64,000 bases of DNA from NCBI GenBank assembly GCA_016934535.1, contig JAFGSQ010000006.1:2617-66616 (forward strand). Reading direction: 5' to 3'. The notes below the pieces were generated by a model. It did not search any database. It worked only from the letters and a program-made list of their open reading frames with translations, and was not told the DNA's origin. This document shows, one piece after another, positions 24,687 through 30,004 of the stretch. The position numbers and the translations under genes are program-made. Source of the DNA: a candidate division WOR-3 bacterium. Lineage in GTDB: Bacteria; SDB-A. Each line of letters opens with the position of its first letter. Positions within the stretch are counted from its first letter, which is position 1.

Positions 24687-27600
24687 ATGAAAAACAACAC
24701 GCCATCTTTTATACATGAACGCTTCAAATCCTCTCAGCAATACGGCGTATTTCCTTGTTCCGCAGTGACTATTAATCTTTCCGGTCTTCCCGGAATCATT
24801 GAAAAACTGAAAGATTATAAAAGCGAGGGTTTTACCGAATTCACGGCAAACATTACCAAAATTTACACGCCAATAATCGAGACCATATATCGCCACAGCG
24901 GATTTGTATGTAAATTTTTCAGCGACCAGTTTATAGCCGTTTTCCCACATGAAAATCCGTCCCCTTCAGCAGACAATGCAATTTTTTGCAGTCTCAGTAT
25001 ACTTAAAAAAATGAAAGATCTTGCCAGAATCAAAACTCCATTCGGAGATTACTTTATTTTTTGTAAAATCGGCATCGGAACTGGAAACGCCGATTGGGGA
25101 ATTTTCGGAAAAAAGGAAAAAAATTATTATTTTAAAGGCGACTCGTTCATAAAGTCCTACATGTCGATTTCCGCCGGAGCTCTGAACCGCGTGACACTCG
25201 ACGAATCCACGGTAAAATTGATTACTGACGAAAACATCAAGGCTTCGCTTTTCAGGCAGAAAAATTTCTTTTACGCTGAAAACGTAGATTCAGCTTTGAT
25301 GTCAACGGAATTCACTGATCCAAAATACACGGAAGTAAATGACGAAAGCTTTACTCGAACGGACCTATCAAAACTCCAGGACGGTGATTTCAGCCAGATC
25401 ACATCGCTTCTGACTTCTTTTGACGACAGAGCGTTTGACAACGAAGAAGAATTGATCGATTTTCTTTCATTCGTCTTCGAAAACTCCCGTAAAGACGGTT
25501 TGCTTTTCGGCGGACTTATACATTTCAAACCCAACCCTCACTTGACGTTCTATTTTGAATCAGAAGATGCGCAAAATATTGAAAACGCAGTAAAATCAAT
25601 TTTCCTGGCTGAAAAAGAATTTAAAATTTCAACTCGGACCGTAATGACGAGAGGTATCTCTTACGTTGGCTTCCTCGACACACAATATTATAAAGATTTC
25701 GTTTGTATTAGCCGTTCAATAAACACAGCAGAAATGATTTTGACTCAAACAACTGAAAAAGGAATTTTGATAACAGAAGAGATAAACGAGAAAATTAAAG
25801 ATTCGGTAAATACTCTGCCTCATTCTTCGTTCGTCGAAAAAGGATCCATCAAAGAAACGAGGATTTTCAAGGTTGTCAATAAAAAGACTACCGAACCCGC
25901 AAAAGGGCTTTTTAAAGAGAGGATCGTTTACGGAGAAAAATGTCTAAAGTTCGTAAAACCGTTTCTTGAAAAAAATTTTCCTGGAATAATTTATATTTAC
26001 GGCGACCAGGGCTCCGGAAAAACATTTTTTGCAAACGAGCTTTCAAAAAAATTGAAATCTTCAGTTTTTCTTCTTCACGGAAACCCAATTTTCAACGAAT
26101 CTTTGAAGCCGTTCAAGGATTTTTTCAATGATTTTTTTTTCAAAGAAGAAAGCGCTCAGGACAAGAAAGAAGCGTTCATCCAGAAATACGAAATATTTTT
26201 AAAAAAATGTCAATCATCGACTTCTGAAGGAAATGTTGTTTTAAATGAAGAATTGATAAGAACTCCGACGATTATTGCAGCTTTGACCGGTTTGGAGTGG
26301 GAAAACTCTGTTTACAACAGCGTAGAACAGTGTAATAGGTTTGAAAACTCGGTTTTTGCCATTAAAAATTTTATGCTCTCTGTCGCTTTTATGAATCCTT
26401 TAATTTTAATACTGGATGATTTTCAATACTTTGACCAGGATTCATTGAGCGTCATCCAGGTACTGACGCGCGATATCGCGAACCGTCAACTTCTCATTAT
26501 AGCAACCGCCCGATGTGAAAAAGGTTCTGAAAAACCGAAACTGCTTCTCGACGAAGATGTCCCAAGTCTCGAAATCGAACTTGCAAAAACTTCTATTCAA
26601 GCTCTCGAAGGATTTATAGTATCCTTTCTCGGAGAAGATTCGCCAGACAAATTAATAAACAAAATTACGACTCTTTCTTCCGGAAACCCCTACTTAGCCG
26701 AACAACTGTGTCTTTTGGCAGTGGAAGCACAGGAACAGAAAGAGGAACTGTATTCAAAATTACAAAGCAAAATAAATGAGATTGCAGCCAAAAGAGTTGA
26801 CTTTTGGGAGGAAAAATTACGTGACTCTGTCATTTTCTGTGCGATTTTAGGTAATCATTTCGACAAAAAATCACTCACAGCTTCAAATCCATCGAAAATC
26901 GAAGATTCAAAACTAATCAACTTTTATGACTCTCTCCTGGATGAAGGAGTAAAAAAACAGATTTGGACAATTTCGGCGCCCACCCACATATTTTTTAGAA
27001 ATGAAGAACTCAGAAAATCCATAGTCCAAAACTTGAGCGAAGAAAAAAGAACGACCTTACACCTTGAAGCGGCTAAAGTCCTTGAAACTCTGTTTGGAGA
27101 TGATAAAACACGATTCACTGAAATCGCCTTTCATTTTCAAAGAGGCGGAGACATCGTCAAGGCGGTTAAATACTATATCGATTCCGCCGAATGGTCTTTC
27201 TTTAATTACAGACTTGAAGAATCCGTTGGCCTCTTGAGGACGGCTTATGAGATAGAGAAAGATTTGACAAAAAAATTCGAAATATTATTGAAAATGTTCT
27301 CTGTTCAGAAAGAAATGAAAATTTTTCAGATAGACGAAATACTATACGGACAGGCGGATGAATATTTCCGCTCTGAGAATGACACACCATCTTCCGTAAA
27401 ATTGCTATATTACAGGGCTCATTCTTTTCTCAAGGAAGACGATAAAGACAGAGCTCTCGAGTATATTGAACAGGCGAAAAATCTTGCCGAAGAAAATAAT
27501 CAAACCGAACTTCTGCCTGAAATTTACAAATTTTTTGTTCCTATGCTCATAGAAACACGCAGATTCGAAAAGGCGGAAAAAAGCCTCGATTCTTTCGAAA

Positions 27601-28412
27601 AACTTCCGGAAAAAACCGTCGAACCGCACCTTGGAGACATTATTTCATTCAAAGGGACAATCTTGATGAATAAAGGGAAATTTGACCAGGCACTTGAAGT
27701 GTTCGACAAGGCGGTCACAATTTTTGAAAACAATAAAAATCTGTCCGGTATGGCACCTGTTCTCGACAATGTATCAAAGATATATTTCAAAAAAGGTAAA
27801 GCCGGAAAAGCTTTGGAATACAGTATAAAGTCGCTAAACGTCGGCAAAGAGATAGGTTCATACAAGACCATGGTAATAAATCTGCACAACATAGGCGGAG
27901 TCTTCATGAAGGCGAGAGATTTCAACAAGGCCGTAAAATTTCTCGAACAATCCCAGCGTTTGTCCCGCGAGCTGAAAAACTACAAACTTGAATCTTACGT
28001 CCTCGACAAACTTGGAGACATAGAAAGAGCGAGAGGCTACATGGCAGAGGCTATGTCTTTTTACGAAAGGTCTCTTGAAAACCGTTTAAAACTGGGTGAC
28101 TTGATTGCCGCTGGAAAATCGTTTAAATTCATCGGCGACGTTCTCAGCAGTCAGAACAACTTTGATAAAGCCAAAGAATATTACGTAAAAAGCATGTCGT
28201 ATTTTAAGAAAGCCGATGACAGGAAATCATTGGCCGAATCAATAGAAAGCTTCGGAACAAACGAGTTTAAAAAAGACAAACAAAACAAATTCAAGACTCT
28301 CAAATGCTTGGAACACGCATGGAACATATACGAGAGCCTTAGCGACTACGACAGACTGACCAACCTCGAAAAACTTATAAACCAGGTCACGTGGGAAGGC
28401 ATAGACATCTGA
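24687..28412 (+). CDS. Paralogous multidomain protein: two degenerate cyclase-homology-like domains + P-loop STAND ATPase + TPR repeats
   Basis: Same overall architecture as 9756..13742. Walker A GDQGSGKTFF. The cyclase-like regions lack the FxDxxGFT Asp (VTINLSGLPG) and have degenerate N/R motifs, so they are probably non-catalytic. C-terminal TPR array. Confidence 0.7.
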   Translation: MKNNTPSFIHERFKSSQQYGVFPCSAVTINLSGLPGIIEKLKDYKSEGFTEFTANITKIYTPIIETIYRHSGFVCKFFSDQFIAVFPHENPSPSADNAIFCSLSILKKMKDLARIKTPFGDYFIFCKIGIGTGNADWGIFGKKEKNYYFKGDSFIKSYMSISAGALNRVTLDESTVKLITDENIKASLFRQKNFFYAENVDSALMSTEFTDPKYTEVNDESFTRTDLSKLQDGDFSQITSLLTSFDDRAFDNEEELIDFLSFVFENSRKDGLLFGGLIHFKPNPHLTFYFESEDAQNIENAVKSIFLAEKEFKISTRTVMTRGISYVGFLDTQYYKDFVCISRSINTAEMILTQTTEKGILITEEINEKIKDSVNTLPHSSFVEKGSIKETRIFKVVNKKTTEPAKGLFKERIVYGEKCLKFVKPFLEKNFPGIIYIYGDQGSGKTFFANELSKKLKSSVFLLHGNPIFNESLKPFKDFFNDFFFKEESAQDKKEAFIQKYEIFLKKCQSSTSEGNVVLNEELIRTPTIIAALTGLEWENSVYNSVEQCNRFENSVFAIKNFMLSVAFMNPLILILDDFQYFDQDSLSVIQVLTRDIANRQLLIIATARCEKGSEKPKLLLDEDVPSLEIELAKTSIQALEGFIVSFLGEDSPDKLINKITTLSSGNPYLAEQLCLLAVEAQEQKEELYSKLQSKINEIAAKRVDFWEEKLRDSVIFCAILGNHFDKKSLTASNPSKIEDSKLINFYDSLLDEGVKKQIWTISAPTHIFFRNEELRKSIVQNLSEEKRTTLHLEAAKVLETLFGDDKTRFTEIAFHFQRGGDIVKAVKYYIDSAEWSFFNYRLEESVGLLRTAYEIEKDLTKKFEILLKMFSVQKEMKIFQIDEILYGQADEYFRSENDTPSSVKLLYYRAHSFLKEDDKDRALEYIEQAKNLAEENNQTELLPEIYKFFVPMLIETRRFEKAEKSLDSFEKLPEKTVEPHLGDIISFKGTILMNKGKFDQALEVFDKAVTIFENNKNLSGMAPVLDNVSKIYFKKGKAGKALEYSIKSLNVGKEIGSYKTMVINLHNIGGVFMKARDFNKAVKFLEQSQRLSRELKNYKLESYVLDKLGDIERARGYMAEAMSFYERSLENRLKLGDLIAAGKSFKFIGDVLSSQNNFDKAKEYYVKSMSYFKKADDRKSLAESIESFGTNEFKKDKQNKFKTLKCLEHAWNIYESLSDYDRLTNLEKLINQVTWEGIDI

Positions 28413-28511
28413 ATTTTCCCGTTTTTTCTGATCTGATTTCAACCAAACACATTTTTATTACAATCGAGTGCATTTTGTGACATATAAGTTTCAAAATTTT
28501 TCAAATTCACT

Positions 28512-28545
28512 AAAAAAAAATCTGCCGTTTTACGGCAGATTTTTC
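28512..28545 (-). terminator. Rho-independent terminator, mainly minus-strand
   Basis: Hairpin ATCTGCCG-tttta-CGGCAGAT at 28520-28540, followed on the minus strand by a 9-T run. It sits 13 nt after the stop of the small Cys-rich ORF. Confidence 0.6.
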
Positions 28546-28557
28546 GCGGAAATGAAT

Positions 28558-28698
28558 TTAATTATTTTTCTCTTCTTTTTCACAGCATCCTTTTTTCTCG
28601 CAGGGATGCTTGGAATTTTCGCCGTGGCATTCTTTTATCTGTTCTTTTGAGCATTCTCCGGGTTTGACATCTTTTTCGCAGTGTTTTTTCTTACACAT
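28558..28698 (-). CDS. Unannotated 46-aa Cys-rich (7 Cys) peptide, possibly a metallothionein-like metal-binding peptide
   Basis: Translation: MCKKKHCEKDVKPGECSKEQIKECHGENSKHPCEKKGCCEKEEKNN. RBS AAGGAG 6 nt upstream. It lies downstream of arsR on the same strand and is followed by a strong terminator. It overlaps the 3' end of the arsR ORF by ~64 nt in another frame. Confidence 0.3.
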   Translation of the reverse strand: MCKKKHCEKDVKPGECSKEQIKECHGENSKHPCEKKGCCEKEEKNN

Positions 28699-28982
28699 CT
28701 GTGGCTCCTTTTTTGGGTTTTCAATAAATAGTCATGATACTCTTTTAAAAAAATTTCCACCTGTTCTTTTTCGACTGAATAATGCGCGAAATACCCGGTT
28801 TTTATCGCTTTCACGAAACCGGCTTCCCTCAATATTTTCAGGTGCTGAGAAACAGCGGATTCGGATATTCCGGTGATTTTTGAAACGGCTTTTCCGCAGA
28901 GATTTCCCGAAGATATCAGCGACATTATTTTAGCTCTCGTAGGGTCTAACAAAGCCCTTATTTTCTTTTCTTCAATTTTCAT
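28635..28982 (-). CDS. arsR: ArsR/SmtB-family metalloregulatory transcriptional repressor
   Basis: wHTH core AVSKITGISESAVSQHLKILREAGFV. Length ~115 aa with a Lys-rich C-terminal tail. Confidence 0.8.
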   Translation of the reverse strand: MKIEEKKIRALLDPTRAKIMSLISSGNLCGKAVSKITGISESAVSQHLKILREAGFVKAIKTGYFAHYSVEKEQVEIFLKEYHDYLLKTQKRSHRCVRKNTAKKMSNPENAQKNR

Positions 28983-29115
28983 AATTAAGTGATGACTGAA
29001 TTAATTTAGTGTTAACTTTATATGTATTTCACTGTTTTGTCAAAAGAATATTATTGTTTATAGATTCTATTATCTAAAGTCGCTTCAAAACAGAACATCT
29101 ATTATGAAAAATCTA

Positions 29116-29147
29116 TTAAAAAGCAAAAGCGCGGCTTAGGCCGCGCT
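29116..29147 (-). terminator. Rho-independent terminator (minus strand) downstream of the Lys-rich small ORF
   Basis: GC-rich stem AGCGCGGC-ttag-GCCGCGCT, followed on the minus strand by TTTTGCTTTTT. Confidence 0.5.
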
Positions 29148-29198
29148 CCCATGTATTTATCTTTTTGAATTTTCTGTTAGAAACCATTACATGGCAGT

Positions 29199-29303
29199 CT
29201 ATTTTTTCTTTTTATCGCTCGTACCGCTTTTTCCCTTTCCGCAGGGTTTCTTTTTCGTTCCATCCATCTTTTTCCCTTTACCGCTTCCAGCTGTCTTTGC
29301 CAT
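29199..29303 (-). CDS. Unannotated 34-aa Lys/Gly-rich basic peptide
   Basis: Translation: MAKTAGSGKGKKMDGTKKKPCGKGKSGTSDKKKK. GGAGGA RBS 4-5 nt upstream of the ATG, an AT-rich promoter region and its own terminator. The ORF-track entry 29177..29401 is a different frame of the same DNA. Confidence 0.35.
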   Translation of the reverse strand: MAKTAGSGKGKKMDGTKKKPCGKGKSGTSDKKKK

Positions 29304-29572: not shown

Positions 29573-30004
29573 GTGAAAAAAGTTCTGTTCGTCTGCGTTC
29601 ACAATTCGGCAAGAAGCCAGATTGCAGAAGAGCTTCTTAAAAAATTCGCGCCGGACATGTTTGAAGCGGAAAGCGCCGGCTTGGAACCCGGTGAAATAAA
29701 TCCTTACGTCGTTGAAATATTAAAAGAAGAAGGTATTGACGTTACGAAAAAAAAGACGAACAGCGTGTTTGCTTTTTTTAAACAAGGAAAAAAATACAAC
29801 TATGTAGTGACAGTCTGCAGTGAAACCGAGGGAGAAAAATGTCCGCTTTTCCCCGGGGTGTCAGAAAGGCTTCATTGGAGTTTCGAGGATCCTTCGGCTT
29901 TTAAAGGGAATCACGAGGATGTTATTAATTTGGTCAGAAGTCTCAAAGACAAAATAAAAGAATCCATATTGAAATTTATCAAAGATCATGGAGACGAAGC
30001 CTGA
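29573..30004 (+). CDS. arsC: Arsenate reductase, low-molecular-weight phosphatase family (thioredoxin-coupled)
   Basis: N-terminal P-loop CVHNSARSQ (CX5R); conserved downstream Cys (VTVCSE...KCP); 143 aa. RBS AAGGAG. Confidence 0.85.
   Translation: MKKVLFVCVHNSARSQIAEELLKKFAPDMFEAESAGLEPGEINPYVVEILKEEGIDVTKKKTNSVFAFFKQGKKYNYVVTVCSETEGEKCPLFPGVSERLHWSFEDPSAFKGNHEDVINLVRSLKDKIKESILKFIKDHGDEA

Follow-up and report, generated by a model that had tools for sequence, protein, structure and literature searches.

An undescribed family of small Cys/His-rich proteins linked to ArsR regulators, recognized from a gene overlapping arsR in a candidate division WOR-3 bacterium

Genes and signals at the arsR locus

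The window analyzed in this study is a 64-kb stretch of DNA from a candidate division WOR-3 bacterium. An arsR gene lies on its minus strand, and the 3' end of arsR overlaps a gene for a 46-aa peptide. The genes and their signals, in the order in which they would be transcribed, are as follows.

29015..29043, minus strand: candidate sigma-70-type promoter, TTGACA-17 nt-TAAAGT, 10/12 consensus, presumed functional.
28995..29010: candidate ArsR operator, the palindrome ACTNAATTAATTNAGT, located past the -10 element and ahead of the arsR start.
28635..28982, minus strand: arsR, encoding an ArsR/SmtB winged-helix repressor of 115 aa (HTH_5, E=3e-15); its final 21 codons are shared with the peptide gene.
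28710..28705, minus strand: Shine-Dalgarno sequence AAGGAG of the peptide gene, located inside arsR, 6 nt 5' of the ATG, read from the sequence.
28558..28698, minus strand: gene for a 46-aa Cys7His3 mini-protein, MCKKKHCEKDVKPGECSKEQIKECHGENSKHPCEKKGCCEKEEKNN, assigned by purifying selection in its own frame and by a family profile.
28511..28545, minus strand: intrinsic terminator, a hairpin (28545..28515) plus T9, -25.3 kcal/mol, z = -7.1 versus shuffles.

The arsR product passed the curated cutoffs for PF01022 (HTH_5; 56.2 bits versus 22) and for NF033788 (HTH_metalloreg; 67.7 versus 55). The peptide gene begins with an ATG at 28698..28696 and ends with a TAA at 28560..28558. A first-pass annotation of this DNA had reported a 46-aa ORF with seven Cys downstream of the ArsR/SmtB gene on the same strand, and the translation is exactly as given there. 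The canonical AAGGAG ribosome-binding site that it described is present 6 nt ahead of the ATG. The strong hairpin and nine-T terminator was also found, beginning 12 nt past the peptide stop where 13 nt had been given. The peptide contains 7 Cys (15%) and 3 His, is rich in Lys and Glu, and has no Phe, Tyr or Trp.

The promoter-region sequences TTGACAAAACA and TATAAAGT are conserved across the window and two related loci described below, L001 and L007. The palindrome ACTNAATTAATTNAGT is conserved in the same three loci and occurs once in the 64-kb window, versus 0.05 occurrences expected by chance. Its sequence and position make it a plausible autoregulatory ArsR operator. The CTGCCG...CGGCAG hairpin and T-run are likewise found in L001 and L007. 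A simple terminator scan missed the hairpin because A:U pairs lengthen the stem into the T-run. In a comparison with Rfam, nothing scored above the gathering scores and only terminator look-alikes were returned. With its own promoter, a candidate palindromic operator and a strong terminator, arsR and the 46-aa gene would form a two-gene operon. The terminator marks the end of the operon, and no transporter gene lies beyond it. Since an A-run precedes the stem and a T-run follows it, the hairpin can terminate bidirectionally. It would be shared with the convergent gene at 24687..28412 on the plus strand, which encodes a 1241-aa AAA_16/TPR (STAND-like) protein.

Two neighboring genes are transcribed divergently from the operon, one for a CPBP protease and one for an LMW-phosphatase/ArsC-like protein (29573..30004) that scored 101 bits against a cutoff of 174. 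Between this arsC-like gene and arsR is a second small conserved ORF (29199..29303, minus strand) encoding 34 aa, MAKTAGSGKGKKMDGTKKKPCGKGKSGTSDKKKK. It has AGAGGAGG 6 nt ahead of the ATG and its own strong GC-rich terminator at 29124..29151. L001 and L007 have conserved versions of this ORF, with a 9-nt indel that keeps the frame and a codon-position bias of 3/7/17. It matched no Pfam or NCBIfam model, and gene callers use an upstream ATG that extends it to 45 aa.

Conservation of the peptide frame and the overlap with arsR

The closest relatives of the window ArsR are P0001 (96% identity; loci L001-L006 of Logan sediment assemblies) and P0002 (86% identity; loci L007 and L008 of a candidate division WOR-3 MAG). 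The loci of both have an open -1 frame, which codes for MCKKNHCGKDVKPEECSKEQIKECHGENSKHPCEKKGCCEKEEKNN in the first and MCKKNHCGKEVKPEECTQDQIKECHGENADHPCEKKRCCEKEEKK in the second. Conservation of the Cys pattern downstream of arsR had been named beforehand as a check on the ORF, and in these orthologous loci 7/7 Cys and 3/3 His are retained in both peptides. The Shine-Dalgarno sequence, the ATG and the terminator are retained as well. The peptide gene had escaped annotation in most records, as first supposed. It was called once, in L008, and left uncalled in the NCBI WOR-3 MAG and in the six Logan contigs L001-L006.

The window and L007 were then compared over 44 codons. The 27 nucleotide differences fall on codon positions 1, 2 and 3 in the ratio 5/2/20 (binomial P=1.8e-5). 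In the peptide frame pN/pS is ~0.12 and dN is 0.105, with synonymous sites near saturation. The remaining two frames contain stops and have dN/dS >1.

The peptide gene overlaps the 3' end of arsR by 64 nt and is in the -1 frame relative to arsR. Within this overlap the arsR stop shifts, giving ArsR proteins of 115, 105 and 106 aa in the window, P0001 and P0002. It shifts by substitutions that leave the peptide sequence unchanged; GTC to GTA, for example, makes a TAA in the arsR frame. The peptide frame is therefore the constrained one in the shared stretch. The first-pass annotation had viewed the overlap as an annotation conflict, with one of the two readings of the stretch probably wrong. 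That view is not supported: both ORFs are conserved, arsR ends variably inside the peptide gene, and three unrelated loci (L010, L034 and L047) also show a -1 overlap of this kind. Judged from these comparisons, arsR genuinely reads into the peptide gene and both overlapping readings are genuine. The peptide would be translated from its own AAGGAG and ATG inside the 3' end of arsR, and the 64-nt out-of-frame tail of arsR would be a by-product of the overlap.

Two other explanations of the overlap sequence were discarded. A homopolymer sequencing error at the A6 run was rejected since three independent assemblies share the frame structure and other lineages have the overlap without a comparable A-run. 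The arsR-frame tail HRCVRK was likened to the CLRK linker of the fused forms described below, and was judged to be a by-product of MCKKK in the +1 frame.

Family members and their genomic arrangements

A word-based search with the window peptide as single query gave zero matches, and comparison of the peptide with Pfam and NCBIfam returned nothing at E≤1. The family was opened up only by an alignment that included a homolog from another candidate phylum, FCPU426. At this locus (L010), found in a genome scan with the three WOR-3 peptides as queries, arsR occupies 237-599 and the peptide gene 557-703, encoding MCEEKQECQKPEELKDKPENCTPEQIEKCHGDSASHPCCEKEEKEGEE. AAGGAGA precedes the ATG, and the two genes overlap by 43 nt in the -1 frame with no A-run. 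A metagenome scan that included the FCPU426 sequence produced at least 283 confirmed matches, from which 80 loci were kept. The protein database yielded 39 called proteins of 35-84 aa, all but one ≤60 aa. Each is unnamed or labeled "hypothetical", and Pfam domains were found in none of them. A family profile was searched against 1.84 billion cluster representatives, giving 415 matches at E≤1e-3 and 130 at E≤1e-10, mostly of 40-90 aa. Among the ORFs of the window the profile identified the peptide (E=3e-12). The window carries one ArsR and one module.

These results bear on the possibility that the peptide is a chance ORF in the 3' region of arsR or in untranslated sequence. The reading draws on the failure of gene callers to report the peptide in the WOR-3 MAG and the six Logan contigs, and on the empty word-based search. 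The conservation of the frame, the Cys and His residues, the Shine-Dalgarno sequence and the ATG, the codon-position bias, and the number of profile matches all stand against it. It is refuted by the conservation, and we give it almost no credence. That the 46-aa ORF is a real, conserved gene is in our judgment virtually certain. As the first-pass annotation proposed, it sits on the arsR transcript as a genuine gene, with its Cys pattern kept downstream of arsR in related genomes.

The family core is KPxxC[TS]PEQI[KE][EK]CHGx5HPC, and 4 Cys and 2 His are invariant in the alignment (A3). In window numbering the invariant residues are C7, C16, Q20, C24, H25, H31, P32 and C33, while P13, E19, I21 and G26 are nearly invariant. 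The invariant Cys are spaced x8-13, x7 and x8. The family consensus is MC..K..CQKPE.LKGKPE.CTPEQIKECHGD...HPC. In the window peptide, a short form, PE.LKG is missing and a C-terminal CC is added. The peptide contains the motif KPxxC[ST][PK][ED]Q[IV]xxCHGx5HPC, preceded by a Cys that lies 8-13 residues ahead of the first Cys of the motif, and reads C7, KPGEC16, SKEQIKEC24, H25, G, ENSK, H31, P, C33.

Some members have two tandem units, including 19/149 of the best cluster matches retrieved. The two-unit modules are either free (68-103 aa) or fused to ArsR (196-216 aa), and occur in L041, L042, L063, L064, L072, L075 and L086 and in P0160-P0177. The repeat unit is ~34 aa and begins C(E/Q)(H/K)PE(K/R)L.

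According to the source records, members come from WOR-3, FCPU426, Eisenbacteria and Deltaproteobacteria MAGs. The hosts are all uncultured and known from environmental metagenomes alone, and the JGI records are largely from sediments. The C-terminal part of the ArsR-fused proteins matched neither Pfam nor NCBIfam models. A literature search, motif strings included, found no description of the family. On the sequence comparisons made here, the peptide belongs to an undescribed small-protein or domain family linked to ArsR regulators.

The peptide was modeled with AlphaFold in two runs (38 and 82 sequences), with a pLDDT of 65 and 62. Only the helix at residues 18-25 is firm, and no metal site is visible in these low-confidence models. 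A Foldseek search of the PDB with the peptide model gave 0 matches, and a PDB sequence search with the peptide gave nothing meaningful.

The arrangement of module and arsR was examined with an ArsR profile search. After removal of redundancy, 63 loci with ≥420 nt upstream were available. An ArsR gene was found in 38/63. It is fused to the module in frame in 16, directly upstream in 17 and elsewhere in 5 (4 farther upstream, 1 downstream). The module is thus fused or adjacent to ArsR in 33/63 non-redundant loci, and in the window its gene overlaps arsR. No ArsR was found in the remaining 25/63. The in-frame fusions put the module at the ArsR C-terminus, as in the 162-aa protein of L039 and the 196-aa protein of L041, which has two modules.

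Eighteen loci with arsR immediately upstream were inspected. Ten have the order arsR stop, 5-120 nt gap, GGAGG and ATG, so in these loci the peptide is an independent cistron. An overlap of 8-64 nt is found in 7/18 (the window, L001, L007, L010, L034, L047 and L077). In L020 the nearest ATG is 3' of the first Cys of the module and the true start is uncertain. A GGAG-type site is present 6-10 nt ahead of the ATG in all 18/18. Among the fused ORFs, 15/17 have an internal ATG-TGT that is still preceded, at 8-10 nt, by a GGAGG-type site. In a rough neighbor-joining tree without support values, the fused ArsRs form one diverged clade, which suggests that the internal start of the fused genes has been kept for a long time. 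The WOR-3 ArsR falls outside the other motif-linked ArsRs in the same rough tree.

The frame relationship at the window could also be read as a programmed -1 frameshift at CAAAAAAGG that joins ArsR to the Cys-rich tail, making a fused ArsR the functional product. The peptide frame is indeed -1 to arsR and open from the A6 run on, in-frame fused relatives exist, and all three WOR-3 loci have kept the A6 run. However, the zero frame reads CAA AAA AGG, which is out of register with a slippery X XXY YYZ site of the dnaX type, and no stimulatory element was found at the expected spacing. L010 and L047 share the -1 overlap without an A-run, and L034 has just a short GAAAAA. The canonical Shine-Dalgarno sequence and ATG at the peptide start of every locus, and the stop and gap between the genes in ten loci, also count against it. 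We consider a frameshift very improbable.

Among the 88 downstream neighbors, genes for an ABC ATPase (ABC_tran, 18) together with an ABC-2 permease (ABC2_membrane, 10) are the commonest; class I methyltransferases (5) and chromate-type transporters (ChrA, 3) are also found. The context did not name a ligand. Neighboring methyltransferases fell below the ArsM cutoffs, the ArsC-like protein of the window fell below its own, and the rest is heterogeneous. The frequent ABC-2 genes downstream, together with the length of ~45 aa and the many Cys, would suit the precursor of a modified Cys-rich peptide (SCIFF- or ranthipeptide-like) that is exported by an ABC-2 transporter. Yet the peptide has no match in NCBIfam, a library that presumably includes the SCIFF models. 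A radical-SAM or other maturase is absent from the window and none recurs among the locus neighbors. In-frame fusion to a DNA-binding protein is moreover incompatible with secretion, and we regard such a precursor as highly implausible.

The upstream genes of loci without ArsR are heterogeneous and include ComEC, PCC-domain, DsrE-like and PadR genes. The module gene is 3' of a PCC-domain (PF03479) gene in the ArsR-less loci L021 (1788..2237), L035, L082 and L087. ComEC-like genes (DUF4131/Competence, 5-6 matches) are the other commonest family among upstream neighbors overall. In L011 (2501..3844) the module is the fused N-terminal part of a 447-aa membrane protein whose methyltransferase domain is PEMT/ICMT-like, and this gene directly follows an arsR gene. 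Because of the 25/63 loci without ArsR, the PCC-domain and PadR contexts and the methyltransferase fusion, the module does not depend on ArsR.

Possible roles of the module

A canonical sensing site (alpha3 ELCVCDLC for As, alpha3N, or alpha5 DxHx10Hx2E) was sought in the window ArsR by reading its sequence and was not found. Alpha3 is NLCGKAV, with a single Cys, and alpha5 is EKEQVEIFLKEYHDYLLK, without DxH...HxxE. With one alpha3 Cys and no alpha5 site, the window ArsR thus lacks a complete canonical sensing site of its own.

Under the reading that we favor, with confidence just short of even, the peptide is a separate Cys4His2 module that binds a metal or metalloid and acts jointly with its ArsR. 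The incomplete sensing site of the window ArsR argues for this reading, as does the fusion of the module to ArsR in some genomes. Proteins that are fused in some genomes and separate in others present a classic sign of working together. Also counted in its favor were the ArsC-like neighbor and, elsewhere, the downstream ABC_tran, ABC2_membrane, ChrA and methyltransferase genes. Counted against it were the 25/63 ArsR-less loci, the tandem units, which are more like metallothionein-style multiplication, the low pLDDT, neighbors that name no ligand, and the position of the WOR-3 ArsR apart from the others in the rough tree.

The peptide would be the free-standing form of the module KPxxC[ST]PEQIxxCHGx5HPC, and in a sister clade the same module forms a C-terminal domain of ArsR. 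Its ligand would be a thiophilic metal or metalloid ion, probably the one that its repressor senses, held by C7, C16, C24 and C33 together with H25 and H31, and C2, C38 and C39 could supply additional binding sites. In concert with the ArsR dimer, the module may then serve as a sensor that can detach, as a metal donor or buffer, or as an anti-repressor, and would thereby set the inducer level at which the operon is derepressed. In other loci a downstream ABC-2 exporter would be derepressed along with the operon. The metal binding, the ligand identity, the ArsR contact and the regulatory outcome are what we infer for the module.

A more specific proposal, which we hold to be possible and rather doubtful, is that the ArsRs of this group are two-piece sensors whose Cys4His2 module is made separately from an internal or overlapping start. 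The internal ribosome-binding site that the fused genes retain would let the module be made in free and tethered form side by side, and the ratio of free module to repressor would tune the induction threshold. If this is true, a one-component metalloregulator would have a sensory domain that can detach from it and that belongs to a fold family without a described member.

The first-pass annotation had suggested a metallothionein-like gene. A stand-alone sink of this kind would sequester excess metal while ArsR only controls transcription, as in the logic of smtB/smtA, with no interplay between the two proteins. The composition fits, with 7 Cys and 3 His in 46 aa, no aromatic residues, and an abundance of Lys and Glu. 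Low AlphaFold confidence is compatible with metal-dependent folding. The tandem two-unit versions, the 25/63 loci without ArsR and the co-transcription with a metalloregulator can be cited for a sink as well. The metallothionein likeness ends with composition. The peptide matched no Pfam or NCBIfam model, metallothionein models included, and there are only 4 Cys and 2 His per unit. Several non-ligand positions are strictly conserved, which is unusual for metallothioneins and suggests a defined fold or interaction surface. The module is a C-terminal domain of ArsR in 16/63 loci, and this in-frame fusion persists through a deep clade. Placement on the same mRNA as the repressor suggests repressor-tied expression, versus the high level expected of a sink. 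Taken together, the conserved non-ligand residues and the ArsR fusion point to a defined module working with the regulator, not to a generic metal sponge. We view a sink as a possible and rather doubtful explanation.

Like SmtA of the smtB-smtA pair of Synechococcus, and like other bacterial metallothioneins under ArsR/SmtB control (BmtA family), the peptide is a small Cys/His-rich protein, presumably cytoplasmic, that is genetically tied to an ArsR/SmtB repressor, and its expression is presumably derepressed by the metal that it binds. Unlike SmtA and BmtA, it has no match to the bacterial metallothionein model (Metallothio_Pro), and its family conserves non-ligand residues and occurs fused to the regulator. 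The smtB and smtA genes are divergent, whereas here the peptide gene is co-directional with arsR and overlaps it.

In the CopY-CopZ and ArsR-ArsD systems a small metallochaperone is co-transcribed with a repressor and acts on or beside it. The present operon resembles these in having a small protein encoded with a repressor, and by analogy the module may deliver metal to ArsR or withhold it. It differs in that neither the HMA (MxCxxC ferredoxin-like) domain of CopZ nor the ArsD domain was detected in the peptide using Pfam and NCBIfam, and the fold family is unrelated. To our knowledge CopZ and ArsD have not been found fused to their repressors as this module is. The peptide is best placed in an undescribed ArsR-linked family, as a variation on the known pairing of Cys-rich proteins with ArsR/SmtB repressors, with a genetic logic like that of smtB/smtA or CopY/CopZ.

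The four invariant Cys at regular spacing raise the possibility of an Fe-S cluster or of a thiol-redox module (disulfides or polysulfides), through which ArsR would sense redox state, O2, NO or sulfide in the manner of SufR or BigR/SqrR. SufR has an ArsR-like HTH joined to a C-terminal four-Cys Fe-S site. The cyanobacterial [4Fe-4S] SufR therefore resembles the fused family members in combining a winged-helix DNA-binding domain with a C-terminal segment that has four spaced Cys. The uncultured hosts, known from environmental metagenomes with JGI records largely from sediments, and the DsrE-like genes upstream in 3 loci can also be cited for a redox role. However, the two invariant His beside the Cys and the variable additional Cys suit a metal site better. 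The SufR and BigR models match the HTH part alone and far below their cutoffs (E=0.019 for SufR). The suf genes are not nearby, and neither Fe-S assembly nor sulfur-oxidation genes are consistently linked among the locus neighbors. We consider a redox module improbable.

If the ArsR-partner reading is true, an undescribed sensory or metal-handling module joins the repertoire of the ArsR/SmtB proteins, which are much-studied metal sensors. The module is found widely in uncultured lineages of sediments, and its gene, being short and overlapping with arsR, is often missed by gene callers. The gradation from split through overlapping to fused genes, in which the internal start is retained, would be a natural experiment on the attachment and detachment of a sensor domain. 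At 34-45 aa the module is small enough for chemical synthesis and for metal-binding and structural work, and it may serve as a compact metal-binding tag or biosensor part.

Other ArsRs carry Cys near the C-terminus. The ArsR of Acidithiobacillus ferrooxidans (Cys95/96/102) and CmtR (Cys102) have a Cys-bearing extension after alpha5, a feature that the fused family members share. Here, by contrast, the window has a separate polypeptide with its own start, and the conserved unit is a module of 34-45 aa and not a few tail Cys. Homology of the peptide to the Clostridia-type ArsR Cys tail PCDGPFYGCPESEYVRC was considered and rejected, with an hhalign probability of 0.1%. The ArsRs with this tail are the next-closest homologs of the window ArsR (P0003-P0120, ~49% identity). 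The tail is in frame and conserved, as R(Q/E)PCDGPFYGCPE(S/A)EY(V/I)RCK(S/A)YVPPE, and it also seems undescribed. The few named carriers of this tail among P0003-P0120 are Clostridia and Lachnospiraceae MAGs.
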